This document shows positions 3,388 through 58,466 of a stretch of 64,000 nt of DNA, in pieces. Each line of letters opens with the position of its first letter. Positions within the stretch are counted from its first letter, which is position 1. The notes beneath the pieces were generated by a model, which did no database searches, was not told the origin of the DNA, and saw only the letters and a list, made by a program, of their open reading frames with translations. The position numbers and the translations under genes are program-made. Source of the DNA: Candidatus Uhrbacteria bacterium (GTDB lineage Bacteria; Patescibacteriota; Patescibacteriia; UBA9934); the NCBI GenBank assembly GCA_943359325.1, contig CALRHD010000001.1:6240-70239 (forward strand), read 5' to 3'.

Positions 3388-3927
3388 CTTGAAAGACGAA
3401 AGCGCGGGGCTTCAGCGTGGGGTATTAAAAAATAGGCTTGGTATACAAAATCAAAACGAACTTGATGATGCCGAAACACTACTTTTGATTGCGAGCTCTT
3501 GCTAAGGATTCACAAGTATTTTCTTGCTCCATTGTATTCTTGGGCGGGGAAGATTCGGACGGTTGATATGTCGAAAAACGAGGTTCTGTTTGCGTCGGCA
3601 GATCATATTACTGCATCGCTGCGAGAATTTAATTCTGTGCTTCGCACTCACACTGCAGCGTCTCGATATACGAAAAAGTCGCTCGCTGAGGATTTCGCCG
3701 TTATTCACTGTGAGATAAATGCTATTCACCCATTTCGAGAAGGCAATGGAAGAACAATCCGTCTTTTTCTTGATCTTCTTGCATTGCGTGTCGGGTATGA
3801 TTTTATTGATTGGAGCAGAAGCTCTCAGGAAAAATATATTCATGCATGTATTGCAGGAATGGCAAAAAGATATTCGTTTATGCAAAGAATTGTGTACAAG
3901 GGTTTGGTGAAGCGTGCTACCATATAG
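3365..3927 (+). pseudogene. Fic/Doc family protein, interrupted by a frameshift near 3480-3495
   Basis: An ATG at 3365 opens frame 2 (MAEHSRYNLKDESAGLQRGVLKNRLGIQNQNELDDAETLLL), which ends at TAA 3503-3505. The reading continues in frame 1 (ELLLRIHKYFLAPLYSWAGKIRTVD...) and carries the canonical Fic motif HPFREGNGRTIR. The local GC content is clearly lower than in flanking genes. Confidence 0.65.
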
Positions 3928-3932
3928 CTACT

Positions 3933-4664
3933 ATGCTTCATCCTCATAATGCCATGTTGCAAGAGTTCCAGATTTCAATCGACAAATTGGTGCCGTTGAC
4001 ACCAAAGGATATTGTCGACGAAGCGAAGCAGCTTCACGATAGTCTTGTTGCCGACGAAAACAGTACCGAAAAGCAGGTGCATGATGCGCTTGTATATGTT
4101 GGTCGCAAGGAATTTCCGTACCGAAAAGCGTATGAAGAGTTGTGTGTGAGTGACGAAGAGCAACGCTTGCAAGAAGCGGTGTTTGCACATTTGGAGCCAG
4201 CGGTGCGCGAAAAAATCCACAATGTGACTCACCACGGGGTACACGTGCTTGATTATGTAAACAGCAGGCTCTTCGAAGAGCAGCTCACGGCCGACGAACG
4301 TTATTCGGTTGAACAGGCGATTTTATTAGCGCACGATGTCCTCAACAAACAATGTAGCGAACGCGCTGTGGAACGAGCGAAAAATTACGAGGATCTCGTG
4401 ACACGATGGAAAACAGAGGCCGACCGCCTACAGGTGCTGATTGACACGCTGCGTTCCTTTGCCGACCGCGACCCGAAGTGGCAAGGCGAAATTCTTGGCC
4501 GTGTGGCGACGCTCGAAGAGGGTTGGTCGGTTGTGGAGCGTGACCCGACAGAAGAGGAAATTAAAAAAGAACTTGAATACTGGACAGACATTTTTGCAGG
4601 GGAGGATGAGGAGCCTGTGTCTCCAAGCGCAGAGCTCGCAGATGACGGAATGGATGCGGTATGA
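3933..4664 (+). CDS. hypothetical protein with acidic C-terminus
   Basis: 243 aa from the ATG at 3933, which is in frame with the longer track ORF that starts at 3810 inside Fic. No recognisable motifs. The C-terminus is acidic (EDEEPVSPSAELADDGMDAV). Confidence 0.5.
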   Translation: MLHPHNAMLQEFQISIDKLVPLTPKDIVDEAKQLHDSLVADENSTEKQVHDALVYVGRKEFPYRKAYEELCVSDEEQRLQEAVFAHLEPAVREKIHNVTHHGVHVLDYVNSRLFEEQLTADERYSVEQAILLAHDVLNKQCSERAVERAKNYEDLVTRWKTEADRLQVLIDTLRSFADRDPKWQGEILGRVATLEEGWSVVERDPTEEEIKKELEYWTDIFAGEDEEPVSPSAELADDGMDAV

Positions 4665-15051: not shown

Positions 15052-15708
15052 TCACGACGTGGCAAGGGCGTCGAGCGTCACCGCATTTTCTACCCGAAAG
15101 TCGCCGATCGCGGTGCGGCGCAGGGCAGTGAGATAGCCGACAGTGCCGAGTGCAAGGCCGAGGTCGCGAGCAAGTGCGCGAATGTAGGTGCCGGAAGAGC
15201 ACTTTATGGAACAGTGTAGGTTGTAGGGAGTAGGTTGTAGGGAGTAGGTCTCAAGAAGTGCAAAAGAGAAAATAGTGACAGGGCGGGGTGCGCGTTCCAC
15301 TTCAATACCTTGGCGTGCGAGGTCGTAGAGTTTTTTTCCGCCGATTTTTATGGCGGAATACATCGGGGGAATTTGGAGAATATCGCCCGTCAACGACTGC
15401 ATGGCTTTTTTGACCATCTCCTCAGTCATGTTCACAACTGGCCCGTCGGTAACGTCGCTTTCAGGGTCGAGTGTCGTCGACGTACGGCCAATACAAATCT
15501 CTGCCTCGTACTCTTTTGTCATGCCGACGTACTGTGCGATGTTTTTTGTTTCCTCGCGACCAACGGCGACGATGAGCAATCCCGTTGCAAATGGGTCGAG
15601 CGTTCCTGCGTGGCCAACGGTCCGCTCGCCAGTGATTTTTCGTACGCGGTCAACAACGTCGTGGGACGTGATGCCCGCGGGTTTGTCGATAAGAAGCAAT
15701 TGCGCCAT
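15052..15708 (-). CDS. truB: tRNA pseudouridine(55) synthase TruB (no PUA domain)
   Basis: 218 aa. Begins LLIDKPAGITSHDVVDRVRKI with catalytic motif GHAGTLDPFATGLL. It contains the GTAGGNN heptad-repeat nucleotides in frame. Confidence 0.9.
   Translation of the reverse strand: MAQLLLIDKPAGITSHDVVDRVRKITGERTVGHAGTLDPFATGLLIVAVGREETKNIAQYVGMTKEYEAEICIGRTSTTLDPESDVTDGPVVNMTEEMVKKAMQSLTGDILQIPPMYSAIKIGGKKLYDLARQGIEVERAPRPVTIFSFALLETYSLQPTPYNLHCSIKCSSGTYIRALARDLGLALGTVGYLTALRRTAIGDFRVENAVTLDALATS
15214..15252. repeat. GTAGGNN heptad tandem repeat (5 units) inside truB CDS
   Basis: GTGTAGGTTGTAGGGAGTAGGTTGTAGGGAGTAGGTC. Its 21-nt core GTGTAGGTTGTAGGGAGTAGG is identical to 20405-20425. Confidence 0.7.
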
Positions 15709-16513: not shown

Positions 16514-17638
16514 ATGTATCTCGGTAAAATCATCACCTTGAGTATCGCTATCATGTTTTTTGCGACGATAAATGTTTTGGCTGCAGAAGAAACAACAGTG
16601 CCTCCTACAGAGTATCAAAGTCGTGAAGTGATCGGGACGGTCGACGGTGTGAACATTGGCGACGAAGGGCAGGTGGGTTTGTGGGTGACGGGTGATGATG
16701 GGGGGCTCTACACCGTCGACACATCGATTTCCGTTCCTGAGGGTTTACAGTATCGTGTGGCAAAAGGTGACCGTGTTATTTTGCAACTGGTTGATAATAT
16801 TGATGGTACGGAGACTGCGTATTTCAGCGACATCGTTCGTACGCGCGGGCTCTGGTGGGCATTTGCAATTTTTGCGGCGGTGATAGTGCTTGTAGGGCTA
16901 AAACGTGGCGTGTTTGCACTTGTGGGGTTTGTTGCGACCGTCGGAATGCTGTTCTGGTTTATGTTTCCCCGTATTCTTGCGGGTGCCGATCCGGTTCTTG
17001 TCGCAGTAATTGCGGGCGTTGCTATTCTCGCAATCAATCTGTTTTTGTCGCACGGTTTTACACGAAATGCGATGATCGCGCTTGCGAGTACGAGTATTGG
17101 CGTGGTATTGGCATGGGGCATTGGTTCGCTTTTTGTAAGCCTCGCGAAGTTATCGGGAATGGCAACCGACGAATCTGTTTTCTTATATTGGCAAATTGGG
17201 ACACTGCATGTCCCCGCAGGGTTGTTGCTGGCAGGCATCATCATCGGCACTGTTGGTGTACTTGACGACGTCGCCATTACGCAGTGCGAAACAGTCGCAG
17301 AGTTAAAGTCGGCGAACGGTGCGTTCACGGCAAGAGAGTTGTTTGTACGTGCCATGCGCGTTGGTCGGCATCACATTGCGTCGGCGGTCAATACGTTGGT
17401 GTTAGCGTATGCGGGCGCGTCGCTGCCGCTTTTTCTCATTTTTTTGGCGAGTAGCGACGTTTCACTCTGGCGGTTTTTGAACACGGAAATTGTTGCGGAG
17501 GAAATTGTTCGTACCCTCGGCGGCACGACAGCACTTGTGCTCATTGTGCCTCTCGCGACATTTGTTGCCGCATTGGCATGGGGGAGAGTTGGCGTGGAAA
17601 GTCGGGCAGAGTTTGAAGATCACGAACATGATGGGTGA
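16514..17638 (+). CDS. polytopic membrane protein (YibE/F-like)
   Basis: 374 aa. It has a signal anchor, a soluble N-terminal domain and about 6 TM helices. The family assignment is tentative. Confidence 0.45.
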   Translation: MYLGKIITLSIAIMFFATINVLAAEETTVPPTEYQSREVIGTVDGVNIGDEGQVGLWVTGDDGGLYTVDTSISVPEGLQYRVAKGDRVILQLVDNIDGTETAYFSDIVRTRGLWWAFAIFAAVIVLVGLKRGVFALVGFVATVGMLFWFMFPRILAGADPVLVAVIAGVAILAINLFLSHGFTRNAMIALASTSIGVVLAWGIGSLFVSLAKLSGMATDESVFLYWQIGTLHVPAGLLLAGIIIGTVGVLDDVAITQCETVAELKSANGAFTARELFVRAMRVGRHHIASAVNTLVLAYAGASLPLFLIFLASSDVSLWRFLNTEIVAEEIVRTLGGTTALVLIVPLATFVAALAWGRVGVESRAEFEDHEHDG

Positions 17639-17693: not shown

Positions 17694-17760
17694 TGTCATT
17701 CCCGCGTAGGCGGGAATCCAGATAAAATCAATCCGTATCCCCATTTTCATGGGGATGACA
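17694..17760 (+). repeat. two-hairpin intergenic element, copy 1
   Basis: TGTCA-TTCCCGCG-TAG-GCGGGAAT-CCA...ATCCCCAT-TTTC-ATGGGGAT-GACA. The 64-nt paralogue at 56734-56797 preserves both stems through compensatory changes. Confidence 0.7.
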
Positions 17761-17804: not shown

Positions 17805-18326
17805 ATGAATTTCGGAAAAACTACTATCGATGTCATGACGAGTACCGCAGTCATTTTTTTGACTGTGGCGATTGTTGCGATGATCGTTGGCCCTGCGCAC
17901 CGGTTGGCGGTCCATAACGACGACGTTCGGACGGACGATGTACGCAATATCATGGAAGCCATTCTCGACATGCAAACCGTCGACCCTGCCCGCGTCGATA
18001 ATTTGCGCAGCGCATTGGAATCTGCCGGATCTCCACCTCGAGTCATGATCTCCGGCGGAGCCGGATCCGGCTTTGCCGGAGGCAAAAATACATCGTGCGC
18101 TGGCGATCACGGCGTTCAGTGCGGTGATGCTATTTTGGCAGACACATGTGTCGACATCATGCCGTTCATCGACGGTTATATTTCTCACATCCCCGTTGAC
18201 ACCGCTGCGGGTTTCACCTCGGCCGCGACAGGATATTACATCGACTTTTCTCCCGGAACGCTCGAAGTCGGCGCATGTAACCCTGAAACACAGTCGACCA
18301 TTCGCCTATCGCGGACGTTTTATTAG
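17805..18326 (+). CDS. hypothetical membrane-anchored protein
   Basis: 173 aa with an N-terminal TM helix (TAVIFLTVAIVAMIV) and a Gly/Cys-containing extracellular region. It was preferred over the overlapping antisense ORF 17661-18188. Confidence 0.4.
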   Translation: MNFGKTTIDVMTSTAVIFLTVAIVAMIVGPAHRLAVHNDDVRTDDVRNIMEAILDMQTVDPARVDNLRSALESAGSPPRVMISGGAGSGFAGGKNTSCAGDHGVQCGDAILADTCVDIMPFIDGYISHIPVDTAAGFTSAATGYYIDFSPGTLEVGACNPETQSTIRLSRTFY

Positions 18327-18332
18327 CCCATT

Positions 18333-20396
18333 TTGTTGACCTCGCAGGTCATCTCGGCTACTATTCGCGCCATGAACATCTCCGAATTGGCGCGGAAGCT
18401 TCGCGTCCCCACAGAAGAACTGCGTAGCAAGCTCCCAGAGCTTGGTTTTGATATTGGTGGTAAGGCCATCAAAATCCCTGATCGCGACGTCGGTCGTATT
18501 CAGTATGCGTGGCAGGAAATGAAGAAACGCCAATACCTCCAAAAGAAAATGGAGGACCAGAAGGCGCGGCTTGAGCGCAAAGAAAAAGTGAAGACAGGCG
18601 ATGCTGAACACATTTTGTTGCCACCGATGATTACGGTTCGCGACTTTGCTGCTGCGCTCAATTTGCCGATCGCGAAAGTCATGCAGGAACTCATGCGGAG
18701 TGGCATTCTGGCGTCATTGAACGAACGTATCGACTTTGCCTCCGCAAGCATTGTCGCTGAGGATTTGGGGTTTATTGCGGAGCCGATGGGTGAAACGAAA
18801 AAGGAGGACGACTCGGGCGCACACCGTTTGGCCGATGTCATGGGGCTTGAGCAAAAAGAAGATCTTGTGCCGCGTGCGCCAGTTATTGTGGTTATGGGTC
18901 ACGTTGACCACGGAAAAACCATGTTGCTCGATACGATTCGTAAAACGCGCGTCATCGACACTGAGGCAGGGGGTATTACGCAACACATTGGTGCGTATCA
19001 AGCGGTGCGGAATGGTAGGGCGTTGACGTTCATTGACACTCCTGGCCACGAAGCGTTCACCGTCATGCGCAGTCGCGGTGCAAAAGTTGCGGACATTGCT
19101 ATTCTTGTTGTTGCTGCCGACGACGGTATTCAGCCGCAAACGCGTGAGGTGATCGACATTATCAAAGCTGCGCAACTGCCGTTCATTGTTGCAATAAACA
19201 AAATTGACAAGCCCGAGGCAAACGTGGAAAAGATCAAGGGTCAGCTCGCGGAATTCAGCATCGTTCCCGAAGACTGGGGCGGTACGACGATTTGCGTACC
19301 GATTTCCGCAAAAGCGAATACGAATATCGACCAACTGCTTGACATGCTCTTGCTGGTTGCGGACATGGAAAAAGAGCGACTTGTTGCAAACCCGAATCGC
19401 AAAGCAATCGGAACGACGATTGAAAGTCACGTCGACAAAGGGCAGGGGCCGGTAGCAACCGTGCTCGTGCAAACAGGAACACTGCGGGTTGGCGATACGC
19501 TTGGACTTCGTGGTGCAAATTATGGTCGCGTTCGTGCTATGAAGTCGTTCGACGGCAAGGATATTAAAGAGGCGCCACCGTCGACGCCTGTGAAAATTCT
19601 TGGTTTTAAAGAAGCGCCGTCAGTCGGAGATATTTTAGAGGTTCCCGAAAGCGCAGACAGCCTAGAAAAATTGCGTTTACAGCCGTCAAAGAGGTCGGGC
19701 GTTGAGGAATTGACCGTGAAGCATGCACAAAAAACCGAAGACGACGCTGAAAGTGAGGAGAAAAAGGTCATGTTGAATATTGTGGTGAAGGCCGACATGT
19801 TGGGTTCGCTCGAGGCGCTGCTTGGTATGCTTGAGAAGATCGACAATCCGTATGTGGGTATCGACATTGTGAGCAAGGGGCTTGGGAACGTGACCGACGC
19901 CGACGTGTTAAGCGCCGAAGCGGCAAATGCAGTCGTGTTCGGGTTTAACGTGAAAACCATGCCGATGGCGGCCGAATTGGCACGCGAAAAAGGTATTGCT
20001 ATCGAAGAGCATGCCGTGATTTATCGCCTGTTTGAAAGCGTGGTCGCACGCCTTAAAAAGTTATTGCCAGACGAAAAAGTCTACACCGAACTTGGTACGG
20101 CCGAAGTGCTCGCGCTTTTCAAAAAGACAGATAAGGGTCAGATTGTGGGCTGTAAAGTGCGCAAAGGAACGCTCAAGCCAGGGGCAACGATTCGCGTGCT
20201 TCGTGGTGGGCAAGTTATTGGTGAGGGTCGGCTCGAGGCATTGCAAAGTGGGAAGTCGTCGGTGAGCGATGTGCTCGCGGGGCAAGAATGTGGGTTGTCG
20301 TTCCTCGGAAAAACAAAAATGGAAGTGGGCGATACGCTTGAAGTATATAAAGAAGAATTGCAAGCACGCACTTTGGCAGTTGAGGGGGCGAAATAG
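18333..20396 (+). CDS. infB: translation initiation factor IF-2
   Basis: 687 aa with a TTG start. G-domain motifs [24 protein letters not shown], and a C-terminal beta-barrel domain. Confidence 0.95.
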
Positions 20397-20402
20397 GAGA
20401 TG

Positions 20403-20486
20403 GTGTAGGTTGTAGGGAGTAGGGAGTAGGTGGTAGTATGTGGTTTCGTGAGGTAGCCACTACACCCTACCTCCTACACCCTACCA
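20403..20486. repeat. inverted arrays of GTAGGNN heptads in infB-trxA spacer
   Basis: Left arm GTAGGTT GTAGGGA GTAGGGA GTAGGTG GTAG. After a spacer of about 25 nt, the right arm is the reverse complement of GTAGGGT GTAGGAG GTAGGGT GTAG. Confidence 0.7.
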
Positions 20487-23511: not shown

Positions 23512-23558
23512 ACAGTGCCGAGCACTGACAACACCAGGCACTGTCAGTGCCTGGTGTT
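23512..23558. repeat. palindrome family copy A (small hairpin + 15-bp-arm perfect palindrome)
   Basis: CAGTGC-CGA-GCACTG at 23512-23526. Then CAACACCAGGCACTG-T-CAGTGCCTGGTGTTG at 23528-23558. It lies between the divergent rsmB-like gene (start 23497) and leuS (start 23608). Confidence 0.8.
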
Positions 23559-23607
23559 GGTTTCTGTCTGGCGTTTGGGGTCTTCTATCTGATACCATGA
23601 TCCTCGT

Positions 23608-25905
23608 ATGTCGTATGACCATCAGCGGATAGACAAAAAGTGGCAGAGTGCGTGGGAGAAGGCGGGGATTTTTCATGCAAAAGATGAGGATAGTCGCGAG
23701 AAGTTTTACGCGCTGGTTGAATTTCCGTACCCGTCCGGTGCTGGCCTCCACGTCGGCCATCCGCGGAGTTATACAGCGATGGACGTCATTGCACGAAAAA
23801 AGCGCATGGAAGGCAAAAACGTCCTTTTCCCCATGGGTTGGGATGCGTTTGGATTGCCTGCAGAGAATTACGCAATCAAAACAGGTGTACATCCTGCGAT
23901 TACGACAAAAGAAAACATCAACACATTTCGTCGCCAACTTCAATCTATTGGTTTTAGTTTTGACTGGTCACGCGAGTTCTCCACGACTGACCCCGCGTAT
24001 TACAAATGGACACAGTGGATGTTTTTGCAGTTTTTTAAAGCGGGGTTGGCGTACAAAGCAAAAGCAATGATCAATTGGTGTCCGAAAGACAAATGCGGTC
24101 TCGCAAACGAGGAAGTGATCGGGGGAAACTGTGAGCGGTGTGGCACACCTGTCGAAAAGCGGGAAAAAGAGCAGTGGATGATCGCTATCACAAAATACGC
24201 CGACCGCTTGCTTGCCGACCTTGATACCGTCGACTACCTGCCGAAAATTAAAAAGCAGCAACAGGACTGGATTGGGCGGAGTGAAGGGGCGGAGATAGAC
24301 TTTGATGACATAAAAGTTTTCACGACGCGCCCCGACACCATTCTCGGCGCCACGTTTGTGGTACTCGCTCCAGAGCATCCAATGGTTGGCGCGTTGACGA
24401 CGGACGGGTGCAGGGCGGAGGTGGAGGAATACATCGCATTGGTTTCAAAAAAAACTGACATTGAGCGTGGCGACGATACAAAAGAAAAAACAGGCGTGTT
24501 TACGGGCTCATTTGTCGTCAATCCTGCAAATAATGAAAAAGTGCCTGTGTGGATTGCGGATTACGTTGTCGTCAATTACGGCACAGGCGCGATTATGGCG
24601 GTGCCAGAGCATGATGAACGCGATCACGCTTTTGCCGAGAAATATGACTTGCCGATCGTCGATCGTCCTCTTTTGAGTTTTGACGAAGCTCTTAAAAAGA
24701 CTGGTGGACGCAAAAAAGTGACCTATAAGCTTCGTGACTGGGTGTTTTCGCGCCAGCGTTATTGGGGCGAGCCGATTCCTTTGGTGCATTGTGAGGATTG
24801 TGCTTCGACAGGTTCAGCACCTGACGGCTGGGTCGCGGTACCAGACGAGGATCTGCCCGTGCTGTTGCCTGACGTCAAAAAGTACGAGCCCACCGACAAC
24901 GGTGAGTCACCATTGTCGTCAATAAAAAGTTTCGTGAACACCAAATGTCCGAAGTGTGGCGGAGCAGCGACGCGGGAGACAGACACCATGCCTAATTGGG
25001 CAGGGAGCAGCTGGTATTTTCTACGCTACATAGACCCGAAGAACGACGAAGCATTTGCGTCGAAGGAAAAACTGAAACACTGGATGCCAGTTGATGTATA
25101 CAACGGTGGTATGGAGCATACGACGCTCCACCTGCTCTATTCGCGTTTTTGGAACAAATTTTTGTTCGACCAAGGATTTGTGACAACGTCTGAACCGTAT
25201 GCGCGGCGGCATAGTCATGGGTTAATCATGGCTGACGATGGGACGAAAATGTCAAAGTCAAAAGGCAACGTGGTGAATCCTGACGACATTGTGGCGGAGT
25301 TTGGCGCCGACACGTTCCGCATGTACATCATGTTTATGGGGCCGTTCGAAGAACCGGTGCCGTGGAGCACAAACGGCGTTGTTGGCGTGCGGCGGTTCCT
25401 CGACCGTGTCGCACGATTGCCAGAGATGATTGCAGAAACGGAAAACGCATCGGTTACAAAGGTGCTGCACAAAACAATCGCGAAAGTGACGAAGGACATC
25501 GACGACTTTAGTTTCAACACTGCAGTTGCCGCATACATGGCGTTTGTGAACGTCGTTTATGCATCAGGGAGAGTCACGAAACAGACAGTCGTTCAATTTC
25601 TGATGCTTCTCGCGCCGTTTGCGCCACATCTTGCGAACGAACTTTATGAAACGATCGGCGGGACCGGATTTGCGGAAGTACAGCCATGGCCTGTTTCCAA
25701 TGCTACACTCGCGGCCGATGACGAACTTACTATTGCCGTGCAAGTCAACGGGAAGCTCCGTGGTTCGATTGTTGTTTCTGCGGACATGAACGAAGCCGAC
25801 CTCATCGTCGCGGCAAAAGCCGAACCGAACGTCGCGAAGTACGTCATCGATGAACCAAAGAAGACAATTGTGGTGAAAGGGAAGATTGTGAATTTTGTGG
25901 TGTGA
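23608..25905 (+). CDS. leuS: leucyl-tRNA synthetase (short, 765 aa)
   Basis: HIGH motif (HVGHPRSY), KMSKS (TKMSKSKGNV) and a Zn knuckle CPKCG. It is shorter than typical LeuRS, which points to a reduced CP1 editing domain. Confidence 0.95.
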   Translation: MSYDHQRIDKKWQSAWEKAGIFHAKDEDSREKFYALVEFPYPSGAGLHVGHPRSYTAMDVIARKKRMEGKNVLFPMGWDAFGLPAENYAIKTGVHPAITTKENINTFRRQLQSIGFSFDWSREFSTTDPAYYKWTQWMFLQFFKAGLAYKAKAMINWCPKDKCGLANEEVIGGNCERCGTPVEKREKEQWMIAITKYADRLLADLDTVDYLPKIKKQQQDWIGRSEGAEIDFDDIKVFTTRPDTILGATFVVLAPEHPMVGALTTDGCRAEVEEYIALVSKKTDIERGDDTKEKTGVFTGSFVVNPANNEKVPVWIADYVVVNYGTGAIMAVPEHDERDHAFAEKYDLPIVDRPLLSFDEALKKTGGRKKVTYKLRDWVFSRQRYWGEPIPLVHCEDCASTGSAPDGWVAVPDEDLPVLLPDVKKYEPTDNGESPLSSIKSFVNTKCPKCGGAATRETDTMPNWAGSSWYFLRYIDPKNDEAFASKEKLKHWMPVDVYNGGMEHTTLHLLYSRFWNKFLFDQGFVTTSEPYARRHSHGLIMADDGTKMSKSKGNVVNPDDIVAEFGADTFRMYIMFMGPFEEPVPWSTNGVVGVRRFLDRVARLPEMIAETENASVTKVLHKTIAKVTKDIDDFSFNTAVAAYMAFVNVVYASGRVTKQTVVQFLMLLAPFAPHLANELYETIGGTGFAEVQPWPVSNATLAADDELTIAVQVNGKLRGSIVVSADMNEADLIVAAKAEPNVAKYVIDEPKKTIVVKGKIVNFVV

Positions 25906-27230
25906 TGAAATTCGTTTGGACGCTGTCGTGGGTGGGGAGTGCGGTGCTTGTTGCGATTATTGTGGCGGCGATTATTCGGATCCCGTTTTTTCATCCTGCG
26001 GCAGATTCGGTTGCGTTTTCGGTGGGGGAGCATCGTGTTGAGGGCAATGTTATTGACGTTGATCGCGGCGGAGAAACGGCAGGATTGACACTCGACATGG
26101 TCGACGTCGACGATGTCGCAAAGCGCAACCGCGTGCTTTTGCGCGCTCCTGTTGATCTTCTTCCGAACATTGGTGACCGTATTTCAGTATTTTGCACGCT
26201 CGAAGCTCCACAACCGTTCGACGGGTTTGCATACGACAAATTTTTAGCAATTCGCGACGTGTATGCGACGTGTCGAACGAACGACCTCCCGCTCCTCGTT
26301 CGTGCGAACGCTGACCACCGTGTATTGACGCAGCTTGCGAAAATTCGCGCAGGTTCGATAGCGACGATTCGCGCGGCACTTCCCGAACCGCAGGCGACGC
26401 TCCTCGCCGGATTGTTGCTTGGCGACGCAGGGTTCAGCACTGCATGGCGCGACCGATTTCTTGCAACAGGTACGTCGCATATTGTCGCGGCAAGCGGCTA
26501 CAACGTATCGATGGTTGTTAAGGTTCTGTTCGGTACGCTTATAATGTTCGGCCTGCGACGTCAGCGTGCATTTTGGATTCTGCTTGGCGCGATTGCCGTG
26601 TATGCCGTGTTCGCAGGACTTTCTGCCGCGGTGGTTCGTGCCGGCGTCATGGCGTCGATTATCTTGTTGACGCACCAACTCGGCCGCAAAACGTCGATGC
26701 GCAATATCGTGCTGCTCGCAGTCGCCGCGATGCTCACTATCGAGCCGCGTCTTCTGCTGTATGACGTCGGGTTTCAGCTTTCGGTTGTGTCGACAATCGC
26801 CCTCGTATGGGCTGCACCCATCATCGAAAAACGACTGCGCTGGATCCCCGAAGCGTATGCGCTCCGCGACATTATGGCGAGCACCATTGCCGCAACCGCA
26901 TGCACATTGCCTATCGTCATCATCAGTTTTGGTCAGGTGTCGCTTGTCGGTCCTTTCGTCAACCTGCTCGTGCTTCCTGTATTGCCGTTTGCGATGGCGT
27001 ATGGCGCGATAGGTTTTTGTTCGGGCGTAAAGATTTTTATGATTCCGGCGTGGGGGTTATTGTCGTATATGCTTGGCGTGATTCGTAGTGTCGCAATGAT
27101 TCCATTCGCTGTGGTGACGATTCCCATGGGCGGGCGTATCGCGGTCGCGATTATTGTTACTCTGTTTCTCATTTATTTATGGCGAACATTTTTCGTATTC
27201 AAAACTTCACACGACTCGCCGCTGCGATAA
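25902..27230 (+). CDS. comEC: competence protein ComEC/Rec2, membrane channel part (DUF4131 + competence domain)
   Basis: 442 aa. An N-terminal OB-like region is followed by a polytopic membrane domain carrying the ComEC signature GTSHIVAASGYNVSMV. Confidence 0.8.
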   Translation: MMKFVWTLSWVGSAVLVAIIVAAIIRIPFFHPAADSVAFSVGEHRVEGNVIDVDRGGETAGLTLDMVDVDDVAKRNRVLLRAPVDLLPNIGDRISVFCTLEAPQPFDGFAYDKFLAIRDVYATCRTNDLPLLVRANADHRVLTQLAKIRAGSIATIRAALPEPQATLLAGLLLGDAGFSTAWRDRFLATGTSHIVAASGYNVSMVVKVLFGTLIMFGLRRQRAFWILLGAIAVYAVFAGLSAAVVRAGVMASIILLTHQLGRKTSMRNIVLLAVAAMLTIEPRLLLYDVGFQLSVVSTIALVWAAPIIEKRLRWIPEAYALRDIMASTIAATACTLPIVIISFGQVSLVGPFVNLLVLPVLPFAMAYGAIGFCSGVKIFMIPAWGLLSYMLGVIRSVAMIPFAVVTIPMGGRIAVAIIVTLFLIYLWRTFFVFKTSHDSPLR

Positions 27231-28045
27231 TTGTTGCGTTGGCAGTGCTTAGTGTTGCCGCGTGGCGTGCGGGGACGTGGTTTGACGACACTGCATTGAC
27301 GGTGTGGGTATTTGACGTTGGGCAGGGTGATGCGATTTTTATTGATGCGCCGACCAAACAAATTCTTATTGACGGCGGACGTGACGCCACGGTGCTCGAA
27401 AAACTTTCAGCCGTGTTGCCGCCGTGGGATAGGTCGATCGACGTGATGATCGCAACGCATCCGCATGCCGACCATGTGCGTGGTTTGAATAGGGTGCTCG
27501 AGGCGTATGATGTCGGCGAAGTCGTCACAAGCGGCGTGTCGTATGGCGAAGTGCCCGCGATTGCGTTTCAAAAACTCGTCGGCGACGCAACGGTCGCAAC
27601 GGCAGGAATGACGTGGGACTTGGGGCACGGCGCGCGGCTCGATGTGGTGTGGCCGGCGACGGCAATGGAGGGTGCGGTGCTCGACAATGTGCACGAAGGC
27701 AATGTGGTGACGTTGCTCACCTATGGCGGAACAACCGTGCTGCTCACAGGTGACGTGGAGCAGGCAGAAGAGGATCAGTTTGTGCGGGGACTTCCGCATG
27801 TCGATGTTCTCAAAGTTGGTCATCATGGGAGCGATACGTCGACAGGGTTTTCGCTTTTGAACATCACGTCGCCGACATATGCCGTCATTTCCGTCGGCAA
27901 AGAAAATGACTACGGCCACCCGAGCAATCTCGTCGTCGATCGTTTACGGCGGGCAGGGGCGGTTGTGCTCCGCACCGACCTAGACGGCGACATTCGCATT
28001 CGTTCAACAGGCGGCGAACCCGACGTCGCACGGATTGGGTTGTAA
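27179..28045 (+). CDS. ComEC-type metallo-beta-lactamase domain protein with own signal anchor
   Basis: 288 aa. It overlaps the comEC 3' end by 52 nt in another frame. It has an N-terminal TM helix and MBL motifs HPHADHVRG and GHHGSD, so it corresponds to the ComEC C-terminal nuclease-like domain encoded separately. Confidence 0.75.
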   Translation: MANIFRIQNFTRLAAAIIVALAVLSVAAWRAGTWFDDTALTVWVFDVGQGDAIFIDAPTKQILIDGGRDATVLEKLSAVLPPWDRSIDVMIATHPHADHVRGLNRVLEAYDVGEVVTSGVSYGEVPAIAFQKLVGDATVATAGMTWDLGHGARLDVVWPATAMEGAVLDNVHEGNVVTLLTYGGTTVLLTGDVEQAEEDQFVRGLPHVDVLKVGHHGSDTSTGFSLLNITSPTYAVISVGKENDYGHPSNLVVDRLRRAGAVVLRTDLDGDIRIRSTGGEPDVARIGL

Positions 28046-33148: not shown

Positions 33149-33248
33149 TTTAGTCTCCTGCTGCGGGAAGAGGCAGCGAACGTAGTATAGGGGCGGGGCA
33201 AGGAATCTGCAACTTTCCGTCTTGTTTTCAGCATTTTTGTTAAAACGC

Positions 33249-33279
33249 CAACACTACGCACTGACAGTGCGTAGTGTTG
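33249..33279. repeat. palindrome family copy B
   Basis: CAACACTACGCACTG-A-CAGTGCGTAGTGTTG, followed by ATAAT. It lies about 67 bp upstream of the rpsL start. Confidence 0.8.
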
Positions 33280-37982: not shown

Positions 37983-38052
37983 TTCTGGTTGCTCGGCAAC
38001 ATAGTGTGTGCGGCCTTTGTTTTATTCACACGTTGTCCACACTTAGCACTGT

Positions 38053-38086
38053 CAGTGCTTAGTGTTGATAATACGAAAACAAATCG
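38053..38086. repeat. palindrome family copy C (one mismatch)
   Basis: GTCCACACTTAGCACTG-T-CAGTGCTTAGTGTTGA, followed by TAAT. Its left arm is nearly identical to copy D, and its right extension matches copy B. Confidence 0.75.
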
Positions 38087-55375: not shown

Positions 55376-56725
55376 ATGTATGTGGGTTATTTTATTTCTA
55401 TGCAAGCAATTATCAGTAAACTTTCTGACCTCGTTGGTCAAGCCGTGACGCTCAAGGGTTGGGCGTATAATTTTCGGAGTAGTGGAAAAATCTTTTTTCT
55501 CCAGTTGCGTGACGGAAGCGGTTTTGTGCAGGTGGTGTATAGCGCAGCGGAAATTTCTGAAGAGCAGTGGGAAAGTTTGAATACGTTAACGATTGAGTCA
55601 TCGGTCGAAGTGACGGGAGTAGTGAAAGCGGAGCCGCGTGCGCCGAGTGGGTTCGAACTCACAGGCACGGGGTTTGGCATGATCCAACGTACGGAAGAAG
55701 AATATCCCATTGGGAAAAAAGAGCATGGGCCGGAATTTTTGTTCGACAATCGTGATCTTGCGCTTCGCACGAAAACGACGTGGGCGGTACTCCGTATTCG
55801 CGACCGTGTATTCTACTCAATTGAACAATTTTTTCACGAAGAAGGGTTTGTCCGTTTTGATACGCCGATTTTGCAGCCAACAAGTTGCGAAGATACGACG
55901 CAATTGTTTACTGTCGATTACTACGGCGACCCGATGTATTTGTCGCAGTCGGGTCAGCTGTATAGTGAAGCGGGGATTATGACGTTTGGAAAGGTGTATG
56001 ACTTTGGGCCCGTGTTTCGCGCAGAAAAAAGCAAGACACGCCACCATTTGTCGGAGTTATGGATGATGGACGCGGAAATGGCGTTCCACGATCAGGCGAT
56101 GAACATGGACGTACAAGAGCGCATGGTAAAACGCATAGTGAAGGATGTCCTTGACCACTGTGCACAAGAGCTGAAAATTTTAGAGCGCGACACGACAGTT
56201 TTGCAGCGTCTTGTCGACGAACCGTTCGTGCACCTCACACACGCTGAAGCAAAGCGTATCCTCAAGGAGGAGGGGTTGGTGACGGGCGAAGGAACGCAGG
56301 ACGACACGTATTGGCAAGACGATATGTCGACAGAAGAAGAAATCGCATTGGGGAACAAATATAAACTTCCCGTGTTTATTGAAAATTATCCTGCGGAAAT
56401 AAAGTCATTCTACATGAAGCGATTCACGGATGAACAGGGCATTGTTCGTGCGCGATGTGCAGATCTTATTGCGCCGGAGGAGGGGCGAGAGATAATTGGG
56501 GGGAGTCAGCGTGAAGAAAGTTATGAGGAGCTGAAAAAAGAAATTATTGATCGTAATTATCCGCTTGCTGAGTATGAGTGGTACTTGAACACGCGGAAGT
56601 TTGGAAGCGTGCCGCATAGCGGATTCGGTATTGGCCTCGAGCGTACCGTTCGGTGGATTTCAGGCGTGCACCACATTCGTGAGACAATAGCGTTTCCGAG
56701 GATGTTAAATCGCATGAAGCCATAA
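55376..56725 (+). CDS. asnS: asparaginyl-tRNA synthetase
   Basis: Class IIb aaRS with an OB anticodon domain, FRAEKS motif 2, and an AsnRS-type C-terminus ...IIGGSQREE...GSVPHSGFGIGLERTVRWISGVHHIRETIAFPR. Confidence 0.88.
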   Translation: MYVGYFISMQAIISKLSDLVGQAVTLKGWAYNFRSSGKIFFLQLRDGSGFVQVVYSAAEISEEQWESLNTLTIESSVEVTGVVKAEPRAPSGFELTGTGFGMIQRTEEEYPIGKKEHGPEFLFDNRDLALRTKTTWAVLRIRDRVFYSIEQFFHEEGFVRFDTPILQPTSCEDTTQLFTVDYYGDPMYLSQSGQLYSEAGIMTFGKVYDFGPVFRAEKSKTRHHLSELWMMDAEMAFHDQAMNMDVQERMVKRIVKDVLDHCAQELKILERDTTVLQRLVDEPFVHLTHAEAKRILKEEGLVTGEGTQDDTYWQDDMSTEEEIALGNKYKLPVFIENYPAEIKSFYMKRFTDEQGIVRARCADLIAPEEGREIIGGSQREESYEELKKEIIDRNYPLAEYEWYLNTRKFGSVPHSGFGIGLERTVRWISGVHHIRETIAFPRMLNRMKP

Positions 56726-56733
56726 TCCTTTGC

Positions 56734-56797
56734 TGTCATCCTCGCGAATGCGGGGATCCATAAGTGGCTCTGGATTCCCACTTTCGTGGGAATGACA
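56734..56797 (+). repeat. two-hairpin intergenic element, copy 2
   Basis: TGTCA-TCCTCGCG-AAT-GCGGGGAT-CCA...ATTCCCAC-TTTC-GTGGGAAT-GACA. It is paralogous to 17694-17760. Confidence 0.7.
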
Positions 56798-56812: not shown

Positions 56813-58126
56813 ATGAAAAACAGAATTCTTGTAAAAGATCTTGCGGGCAAATTGGGAGAGAGTGTTGTGATTGCCGGATGGCTCAACACGCTGCGTGACA
56901 TGAAAAACTTTGGGTTTGCGATTGTGCGCGACCGAACAGGTTTGGCGCAGGTTGTTGTTGACGTGGCACAGCTTGAGCAGCTGAAGGGTTTACAACTGGA
57001 GACGGTCGTCAAGGTGACGGGCGTGATTAAAGAAAAAAAGTCGAAGGATCCAAGCATAAAAGAAGTTGAGATGCAGGCGGAGACGCTGGAAATTTTGTCT
57101 CCTGTTGTTGACGTTGTGCCTGTCGAAATTAGCAAGCCAGAGCTCGATGTACAGCTCGACACACTGATCGACAATCGCGTGATTACGCTTCGTCACCCAA
57201 AGCAGCGCGCGATTTTTCGTGTACAAGCGGCGCTTGTGCACGGTTATCGGCAGTATATGGAGGCGCAGGGGTTCACGGAAATTTTCTTTCCGATTTTGGC
57301 GGGAGCGGCAAGTGAAGGCGGGGCAGAATTTTTTAAGGTCGACTACTACGGTCGTGAGGCAACGTTGTCGCAGTCTGCACAATTGTATAAACAAATTACG
57401 ATGGGCGTCTACGAAGGCGTATACGGATTGTCATATTCGTTCCGTGCGGAAAAATTTGCAACATCGCGTCATCTTACTGAATTTAATCAGTTTGAATTTG
57501 AGTTGGGGTTTGTCGACGACATGGATGAAGTCATGCAGCATGCCGAGGACTCTATTCGTGCAATGATGGCAACGGTTGAACGGGGCTGTGCCGATGAACT
57601 CGCATTGCTCAATGTGACACTGCCGCCGCTTGGCGAAAAGTTCCCGCGTATTACGCTTAAGGCGGCGCTTGAGGCGTATCGCGACGAAGGCGGTGTCGAT
57701 GAAACGAGTGAGCCAGATTTGTCGCCGGCAGGGGAGCGCTGGCTCTCGACGGTGTGGGCGCCAAAACATTTTGGCAGCGGTTTTGTATTTGTGACCGACT
57801 ACCCAACGGTAAAACGTCCATTTTACGCGAAGCGGGACCCGAACGACCAGTCGAATACGATTACGTTCGACTTGATTGGTTTTGGTAGCGAGATTATCAG
57901 CGGTGGCATGCGCATAAACCGTTACGACGAACAGGTGCAGGCGCTGAAAGAAAAGGGGCTAAACCCTGCAGACTTCGAGGATTACCTCACCATGCACAAA
58001 TTTGGCATTCCGCCCGAGGGTGGTTTTGGCATGGGGCTCCAACGCCTCACGCAAAATGTTCTCGGCCTCGCAAACATCAAAGAGGCAACTATCTTCCCGC
58101 GTGACGTGCAGAGGTTGAGGCCGTAG
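56813..58126 (+). CDS. aspS: aspartyl-tRNA synthetase, archaeal/eukaryal-type (type 2)
   Basis: Class IIb aaRS with a C-terminal ...GGMRINRYDEQVQALKEKGLNPADFEDYL...GIPPEGGFGMGLQRL...FPRDVQRL. The ATG start at 56813 is preferred over the track GTG at 56786, which lies inside the repeat. Confidence 0.88.
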   Translation: MKNRILVKDLAGKLGESVVIAGWLNTLRDMKNFGFAIVRDRTGLAQVVVDVAQLEQLKGLQLETVVKVTGVIKEKKSKDPSIKEVEMQAETLEILSPVVDVVPVEISKPELDVQLDTLIDNRVITLRHPKQRAIFRVQAALVHGYRQYMEAQGFTEIFFPILAGAASEGGAEFFKVDYYGREATLSQSAQLYKQITMGVYEGVYGLSYSFRAEKFATSRHLTEFNQFEFELGFVDDMDEVMQHAEDSIRAMMATVERGCADELALLNVTLPPLGEKFPRITLKAALEAYRDEGGVDETSEPDLSPAGERWLSTVWAPKHFGSGFVFVTDYPTVKRPFYAKRDPNDQSNTITFDLIGFGSEIISGGMRINRYDEQVQALKEKGLNPADFEDYLTMHKFGIPPEGGFGMGLQRLTQNVLGLANIKEATIFPRDVQRLRP

Positions 58127-58420: not shown

Positions 58421-58431
58421 TTGCACAGTTT

Positions 58432-58466
58432 GTCCACACTAAGCACTGACAGTGCTTAGTGTGGAC
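58432..58466. repeat. palindrome family copy D (17-bp perfect arms)
   Basis: GTCCACACTAAGCACTG-A-CAGTGCTTAGTGTGGAC. It lies 33 bp upstream of the scpA start. Confidence 0.8.

Follow-up and report, generated by a model that had tools for sequence, protein, structure and literature searches.

The DNA analysed here is a stretch of 64,000 nt from a Candidatus Uhrbacteria bacterium (assembly GCA_943359325.1, contig CALRHD010000001.1, positions 6,240 to 70,239), hereafter termed the window, and the subject of this work is a pair of short intergenic elements within it, at 17694-17760 and 56734-56797. The first lies between a YibE/F family gene and a conserved hypothetical gene, itself followed by the gene for IF-2, whilst the second separates the genes for AsnS and an AspS-type enzyme (Table 1). 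An initial annotation had described these as one two-hairpin element present twice between co-directional plus-strand genes, and had read the compensatory changes between the copies as selection on RNA structure. Both sequences are present at these positions, all of the neighbouring genes named above are on the plus strand, and the predicted folding of either strand, whether as RNA or DNA, exceeds chance (z-scores of -3.9 to -6).

Each element contains two hairpins of 8 bp. The second of these was described correctly in the initial annotation, but the first had been placed one base out of register, the true stems being ATTCCCGC/GCGGGAAT with a GTAG loop in copy 1 and ATCCTCGC/GCGGGGAT with a GAAT loop in copy 2. 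Compensatory differences between the copies are borne out, and amount to three double changes plus one T:G wobble; the outer TGTCA/TGACA pair and a TTTC loop are, as reported, common to both. At a finer level, both arms of each copy are the same 28-nt unit, TGTCATYCCC-N8-GGGRATCCAG, placed in inverted orientation to one another, and each strand of such a doublet carries one unit reading 5′-TGTCAT and one reading its complement. The four units, U1 and U2 in doublet 1 and U3 and U4 in doublet 2, are separated within their doublets by unrelated spacers of 11 and 8 nt, respectively, and the two doublets are around 79 % alike. U1 most resembles the far arm of doublet 2, U4, with 25/29 identical positions. 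The most diverged unit is U2, which has the stem CCCCAT/ATGGGG and an A in place of a conserved C after the palindrome; its arm recurs in two loci from the candidate phyla radiation (CPR), L086 and L077. The whole of copy 2 can also fold into one long hairpin. Within the window, TGTCATYCYC occurs four times against an expectation of 0.53, solely at the four unit ends, and exact matches to ATYCYC-N8-GRGRAT are found at the four unit sites only.

Since the units stand in an inverted pair and the doublet is nearly strand-symmetric, the plus-to-plus alignment of the two copies is arbitrary, and arguments that depend on the plus strand no longer carry weight. The earlier proposal that the wobble singles out a plus-strand transcript does not hold, as each doublet has a forward unit on both strands; the T:G wobble of U3 lies on the forward strand of its own unit, which is also the behaviour of the wider family described below.

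Table 1. Features at the two loci, with positions numbered from the first nucleotide of the window
Feature	Coordinates	Strand	Remarks
YibE/F family gene, upstream of doublet 1	16514..17638	+	Pfam PF07907, E 2.5e-61
Doublet 1, head-out inverted pair	17694..17760		Bounded by TGTCAT...ATGACA; 56 nt past the YibE/F stop codon, 44 nt before the next open reading frame
U1, TGTCATTCCCGCGTAGGCGGGAATCCAG	17694..17721	+	Model match 45.4 bits, E 2.7e-9; DNA hairpin -8.9 kcal/mol
Doublet 1 spacer, ATAAAATCAAT	17722..17732		Unrelated to the doublet 2 spacer
U2, TGTCATCCCCATGAAAATGGGGATACGG (read on the minus strand)	17733..17760	-	Model match 33.4 bits, E 3e-6
Conserved hypothetical gene, downstream of doublet 1	17805..18326	+	Synteny in relatives
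infB (IF-2), after the hypothetical gene	18333-20396	+	
asnS (449-aa AsnS), upstream of doublet 2	55376..56725	+	
Doublet 2, head-out inverted pair	56734..56797		8 nt past the asnS stop codon, 15 nt before the aspS ATG
U3, TGTCATCCTCGCGAATGCGGGGATCCAT	56734..56761	+	Stem with T:G wobble; model match 40.4 bits
Doublet 2 spacer, AAGTGGCT	56762..56769		
U4, TGTCATTCCCACGAAAGTGGGAATCCAG (read on the minus strand)	56770..56797	-	Model match 44.9 bits, E 3.8e-9
aspS-type class II tRNA synthetase gene, downstream of doublet 2	56813..58126	+	

Insertions within one Uhrbacteria lineage

The AsnS and YibE/F sequences assign the window to Candidatus Uhrbacteria (Patescibacteria/CPR); no exact record of the 449-aa AsnS was found. 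Related Uhrbacteria retain synteny around both sites. The spacer between asnS and aspS measures 88 nt in the window compared to 26 and 5 nt in relatives (AsnS identity of 84 % and 81 %), and that between the YibE/F gene and the next open reading frame (ORF) measures 166 nt compared to 97, 16 and -14 nt (YibE/F identity of 60-66 %). A structure-aware model scan detects no unit in the syntenic loci of these relatives, and doublet 2 is absent from the asnS-aspS spacer of loci L002 and L003. Given that the corresponding spacers are short or absent, and free of units, both window elements are insertions in this lineage rather than conserved regulators of the genes that flank them. Contigs of the same species carry identical elements, with doublet 1 present in L127 and L130 and doublet 2 in L001. 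A metagenome search for an empty site at locus 2 returned no matches.

In the Logan assembly of ERR3719144, the sequence of the same species is broken at doublet 1, where the contigs L128 (at its end) and L130 (at its start) have precisely the 28-nt U1 in common; a repeat would produce just such an overlap. Scans for promoters and terminators gave nothing relevant, and there are no terminator-like sites at either element.

A covarying hairpin family in many phyla

With regard to further copies, a doublet scan was performed using one genome per species, in which only TGTCATYC..GRAT was fixed per arm, leaving 12 free positions per unit, and pairing was not required. This identified at least 120 stretches containing at least 127 doublets. 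Among the matches listed, approximately 19/120 doublet loci belong to the CPR, with hosts from the Kuenen-, Morani-, Falkow-, Wolfe-, Doudna-, Roizman-, Magasanik-, Davies-, Nomura- and Uhrbacteria as well as Saccharimonadales. The other hosts listed include Bacteroidota, the Alpha-, Beta-, Gamma- and Deltaproteobacteria, Chloroflexota, Planctomycetota, Ignavibacteria, Cloacimonadota, Poribacteria, Omnitrophota, Elusimicrobia and Atribacteria, amongst others. The logo of 256 units reads T-GTCAT-(T/C)CCCGCG-A-A-(A/G)-GCGGG(A/G)AT-C-(C/T)-A-(G), corresponding to the family consensus (C/T)GTCATTCCCGCG-AAR-GCGGGAATCCAG. Three positions in these units are conserved without being imposed by the search pattern, namely the C after the palindrome (97 %), the loop G (96 %) and the loop A (96 %).

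The hairpin is maintained in this family by covariation, and is under selection. Stem positions are paired in 98.4 % of cases compared to 20-52 % in register-slid controls, and 139 double-change cells are observed compared to 32 in shuffled sets, with none of 500 shuffles reaching 139. There are 51 distinct stem versions, and wobbles on the forward strand are biased to G:T (27) over A:C (10). The U3 stem, CCTCGC/GCGGGG, is itself a recurrent variant in other phyla, found in seven distinct units elsewhere. A covariance model (R1), for which 148 units from other organisms and no window sequence were used, detects exactly U1-U4 in the 64 kb and nothing else (E 3e-9 to 3e-6, these values being rough), and no unit in another 6.3 kb of the same genome. 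Thus the hairpins, their covariation and the selection upon them, as first described, are all real; an RNA-level element tied to these particular genes is not upheld, as the corresponding spacers of relatives are free of units, and a gene-specific RNA regulator is not supported.

The doublets behave as extragenic units. Only 9 of the 127 listed lie inside long ORF-like segments, as opposed to 1525/2400 random windows. When units outside the seed doublets are considered, paired examples are convergent, and therefore head-out, in eight cases, divergent in none and tandem in one, and a further 31 are single. Where doublets share a spacer (L033, L077 and L034/L105), the DNA flanking them is unrelated from site to site, and the homology between such copies spans TGTCAT to ATGACA. 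No target duplication is found around the window copies, nor around these same-spacer copies. Doublets are always arranged head-out, and are copied as units. Neighbouring gene families around the 127 listed doublets show none that recurs beyond chance, and no recurrent transposase family. The doublet is rare in viral contigs, with five stretches identified.

A number of individual loci display additional features. The Saccharimonadales contig L077 harbours two doublets in opposite orientation, at 1778-1838 and 3917-3977 (2.1 kb apart), which are identical but for one compensatory double change, CCCCGT/ACGGGG compared to CCCCAT/ATGGGG. In L016, L030, L058, L083 (Candidatus Hatepunaea) and L120 (3507-3577 and 5671-5741), the doublet is nested in a longer palindromic element with inverted-repeat outer flanks, and the longer element of the Candidatus Hatepunaea loci and L120 is present in several near-identical copies. 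Stop-free frames also run through the repeats, for example at 3-929 of L083 and 3098-3802 of L086 as well as in other loci, and encode peptides such as VIPAKAGIQ, WIPAYAGMT, WIPAFAGMT and LDSRLRGND; repeat-derived reading frames of this kind are likely to give rise to spurious 'hypothetical proteins' when genomes are annotated. There is thus a practical side to recognising the family, in that the repeats create spurious ORFs and, in the single instance looked at, the break in an assembly falls precisely on a unit.

The sequence of the unit connects it to a described repeat. According to the main text of Chenal et al. (Nat Commun 2025, PMC11893778), the Neisseria Transformation Sequence (NTS), CGTCATTCCCGCGMAVGCGGGAATCYRG, includes the classical dRS3 repeat ATTCCC-N8-GGGAAT and is bound as single-stranded DNA by SsnA, a GIY-YIG nuclease of 94 aa that cuts a few nucleotides upstream; SsnA leaves the reverse strand uncut, and has no activity on double-stranded DNA or RNA. 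The same text identifies the C right after the palindrome as the most important base for binding, and the three bases preceding the palindrome as those on which cleavage depends most, and reports that Ssn homologues and 'Ssn-related motifs' (SRM) are widespread, with ssnA genes often flanked by motifs. Two mismatches separate U1 from the NTS consensus. The dRS3 core is exact in U1 and U4, whilst U2 (ATCCCC..GGGGAT) and U3 (ATCCTC..GGGGAT) have covarying core variants that are common elsewhere in the family. All four units have TGTC before the palindrome, and U1, U3 and U4 have the C after it. It is apparent that an NTS/dRS3-type family occurs in many phyla, and we consider it probable, at roughly three chances in four, that each window element is a head-out inverted pair (a REPIN/BIME-like doublet) of a 28-nt hairpin repeat from the NTS/dRS3/SRM family.

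Several points weigh against this assignment. In U2 the palindrome is followed by A in place of C, and the published SRM pattern, HGTCWYN(0-2)YYVSBRHN(0-5)WNVSBRGN(0-2)RNCYNB, is matched by U1 and U3 but not by U2 and U4, because the stems of the latter carry AT/AC pairs that this hand-made pattern excludes. The window contains no SsnA-like GIY-YIG gene, as judged by tblastn and by a small GIY-YIG hidden Markov model run on six-frame ORFs, and neither does the additional 6.3 kb; a Pfam scan of 85 window ORFs, giving the best 25 of 124 families, cannot confirm the absence of ssnA or RAYT genes. In approximately 71 kb of this genome there are only four units, and the modest similarity of the two doublets, together with their unrelated spacers, gives no sign of recent activity. 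A CPR family of GIY-YIG proteins of 81 aa (L023 type) is not associated with units, with six found over 311 kb from 80 loci. Moreover, SsnA has been shown to cleave and not to transpose, with Ssn mobility a hypothesis in the main text of its description too (PMC11893778), and a different partner, RAYT, has been claimed for the Neisseria repeat (bioRxiv 10.1101/2021.07.10.451892).

Elsewhere in the window, a ComEC-type competence gene (PF03772) is located at 25902-27227, followed by a gene with a metallo-beta-lactamase fold at 27179-28042; the former is of interest because SsnA and the NTS modulate natural transformation in Neisseria. A second palindromic repeat family, CAACACTAnGCACTGWCAGTGCnTAGTGTTG, is present at 23529-23560, 33248-33279, 38035-38067 and 58430-58466, with stems of around 13 bp and compensatory changes between copies, all of which are near gene boundaries. 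Short tandem repeats of the type GTAGG(T/G)TGTAGGGA are found at 15200-15261 and 20403-20436, approximately 5 kb apart.

Partner enzymes and alternative explanations

Three single-domain GIY-YIG genes (PF01541) encoding 93-96 aa were found amongst the loci that carry units, in L017, L118 and L137. The spacing of their catalytic residues, Y7/Y18/E65, is that of SsnA (Y6/Y17/E64). For L017 and L137, where the DNA was read, the ATG is preceded at 17 and 13 nt, respectively, by a forward unit, and a reverse unit follows the stop codon at 0-12 nt. In L118, for which unit coordinates only were used, a forward unit at 4205-4227 precedes the gene at 4245-4511, with a doublet downstream at 4575-4643. 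L137 is an IMG/VR contig of 14 kb containing at least 12 units, and head-out units surround its SsnA-like gene at 5575-5300 (minus strand). Although filed as viral, this contig may represent repeat-rich bacterial DNA. The unit-ssnA-unit cassette and the doublet are bounded alike by TGTCAT...ATGACA, and from this identity of ends the doublet would appear to be a gene-less miniature of the cassette.

The 81-aa GIY-YIG gene found 760 bp from the doublet of L023 was also considered as a partner and was rejected, as no unit flanks this gene in 80 metagenome loci. It lies at 1924-2166 of L023, followed by tRNA-Glu at 2175-2247. Members of this family are positioned no more than around 25 nt upstream of tRNA-Glu in L023, L152, L158 and L167, and around 45 nt downstream of it in L170, and many are on very short contigs.

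A mechanism can be proposed from these arrangements. The functional form of the repeat would be a hairpin extruded in single-stranded DNA, whether during replication, repair or DNA uptake, and an Ssn-family GIY-YIG nuclease would recognise this hairpin on the strand reading 5′-TGTCAT and nick a few nucleotides outside the element. With one forward unit per strand, the doublet could present a site whichever strand becomes single-stranded. As a putative gene-less miniature, it would have spread into both spacers as a non-autonomous element, probably with an enzyme encoded elsewhere in the genome or formerly present. Should hairpins in a read-through transcript affect asnS/aspS or YibE/F mRNA, this effect would be incidental. 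Taken in full, this proposal would have the doublet as the non-autonomous miniature of an insertion sequence-like unit-ssnA-unit cassette, mobilised in trans by a single-strand nuclease of the Ssn GIY-YIG family, and would define a class of single-stranded DNA mobile element that uses GIY-YIG, rather than HUH or DDE, enzymes across many phyla, including the genome-reduced CPR. We offer it tentatively, and as it stands it is unlikely to be correct in its entirety. Within the CPR, the doublet might also mark DNA for single-strand restriction in ComEC-dependent uptake.

A number of alternatives to this scheme must be weighed. That most readily suggested by the gene order is a cis-acting structured RNA, such as a processing or stability element, a protein-binding site, a thermometer or an attenuator, selected in plus-strand transcripts between co-directional genes. 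The two copies would indeed be co-transcribed with their neighbours given read-through, they fold stably as RNA, and the U3 wobble pairs on the plus strand. Furthermore, units of the family do occur in stable transcripts, as one lies within FtrB (RF02748), a Northern-verified Francisella small RNA (PMC3091763). At Rfam gathering scores, however, the window returns tRNAs only, and at permissive E-values FtrB is the sole match, at 25.4 and 20.1 bits compared to a gathering score of 66. Part of the FtrB consensus is GuCauuCcCGCGuAGGCGgGaauC, the core of which is identical to U1, and only this shared unit aligns convincingly, such that the weak matches at both copies stem from the one hairpin held in common. 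With these sub-threshold scores, and with FtrB being a 115-nt Francisella-specific transcript, the window elements were rejected as FtrB genes; additionally, deletion of ftrB has no growth or virulence phenotype (PMC3091763). Set against an RNA function are also the absence of the element from the orthologous spacers of relatives, the presence of the motif in unrelated intergenic contexts of many phyla, a strand symmetry whereby both strands fold equally well, and the finding that SsnA, the only protein for which recognition of the motif has been demonstrated by experiment, does not interact with RNA of this sequence (PMC11893778). RNA-level side effects may arise when an element is co-transcribed, but as an account of the elements themselves this explanation is very improbable. 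A site in double-stranded DNA, selected by the host for a nucleoid, replication or uptake protein and recurring through function as opposed to mobility, would explain the extreme sequence conservation across phyla. The REP/BIME elements of E. coli bind host proteins, and a competence gene is present in the window, both of which would suit such a role. The stem positions covary freely, however, which fits a structure more than a fixed double-stranded sequence, the excess of G:T over A:C on the forward strand points to a single-stranded form, and the sites are not conserved in relatives; we accordingly give such a host site very little credence.

The remaining alternatives accept mobility but assign it to other enzymes. 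Amongst the options listed in the initial annotation, a small miniature inverted-repeat transposable element (MITE) came closest, although the classical form of this, left by a DDE transposon with arms of 27 nt as terminal inverted repeats (TG...CA) recognised in double-stranded DNA by the transposase, does not fit. The TG...CA ends, the inverted arms of around 27 nt and the capacity of copy 2 to fold as one long hairpin are all as this would predict. No target-site duplication accompanies any copy compared, however, each arm forms a hairpin of its own, within which there is strong covariation that double-stranded recognition of an inverted repeat does not require, no recurrent transposase family is found near doublets, and the only gene found within these ends is that for a GIY-YIG nuclease of 93-96 aa, making a DDE origin extremely improbable. 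The other candidate is a REPIN mobilised by a RAYT (REP-associated tyrosine transposase, of the HUH/Y1, IS200/IS605-like kind) in place of an Ssn nuclease. Here, the precedent is direct, in that Bertels & Rainey (bioRxiv 10.1101/2021.07.10.451892) name ATTCCCGCGCAGGCGGGAATC, present in 241 copies, as the seed sequence for REPINs in N. meningitidis, and tie it to the Group 2 RAYT NMAA_0235, and the window elements share a REPIN-like architecture, being extragenic inverted pairs less than 130 bp apart without target duplication. Searches with an E. coli RayT seed (tblastn and phmmer) nonetheless detected no RAYT-like ORF in the approximately 71 kb of this genome, in the 120 doublet loci (0.86 Mb) or in added loci, although the seed is one distant protein that divergent RAYTs could escape, and, since RAYTs are single-copy, their absence from 8-kb samples is weak evidence. 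A weak RayT match in L120 proved to be ScpA and was rejected. Against this, the three SsnA-like genes are tightly enclosed by units, and we regard mobilisation by a RAYT as improbable.

Assignment of both elements to the NTS/dRS3/SRM family as head-out doublets thus remains our preferred reading. It follows that the covariation reflects a mobile DNA hairpin repeat, and not an RNA regulator of tRNA-synthetase or transporter genes, which removes a false lead. Both the unit and the doublet form are already known kinds, with two competing candidate enzymes, Ssn and RAYT.

Relation to NTS, REPIN and REP-BIME repeats

Through the present work, a repeat family with a partner enzyme first characterised in 2025 gains members in Uhrbacteria and around a dozen further CPR lineages. 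The head-out doublet is a recurrent unit with the ends of the ssnA cassette, and therefore bears on whether Ssn nucleases, RAYTs or both spread these repeats. The wider question is which enzyme spreads the doublets, and whether GIY-YIG single-stranded DNA nucleases define a new type of mobile element.

In comparison with the NTS and SRM, the window elements share a 28-nt unit made up of GTCAT, ATTCCC-N8-GGGAAT and C-Y-R-G, which gives an oriented hairpin whose 5′ flank is conserved and whose palindrome is followed by a C. They are similarly extragenic and belong to a family widespread over phyla, and in other organisms SsnA-like genes are enclosed by its units. There are also differences, in that the four units seen here all stand in inverted doublets, a form not described in the main text of PMC11893778, the first base of the window units is T and not C, and there is no ssnA gene in the approximately 71 kb of this genome. 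The host, moreover, is a CPR bacterium, whilst the main text of that study makes no mention of Patescibacteria.

The resemblance to the dRS3 repeats and REPINs of Neisseria lies in the palindromic core, ATTCCCGCGCAGGCGGGAATC, and in an inverted pairing, at distances below 130 bp, in which the two members behave as one replicating unit. The architecture of a REPIN, i.e. two inverted REP-like units at short distance with the capacity to form a hairpin, is present in both doublets. Unlike the Neisseria REPINs, no RAYT was detected here or near the 127 listed doublets, and the copy number is low, with two diverged doublets rather than a population of near-identical ones in the approximately 71 kb of this genome.

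Finally, the REP-BIME elements of E. coli and Pseudomonas are short extragenic imperfect palindromes, often in inverted pairs and often between co-directional genes, that are thought to act as single-stranded DNA hairpins and leave no target duplication, and their partner is the IS200/IS605-like TnpA-REP. The window elements resemble these in being extragenic palindromes arranged in inverted pairs, without target duplication, between co-directional genes. They differ in their unrelated sequence, which is without the conserved GTAG head of REPs, and in their candidate enzyme, which comes from the GIY-YIG superfamily as opposed to the HUH enzymes of the REP-BIME system.

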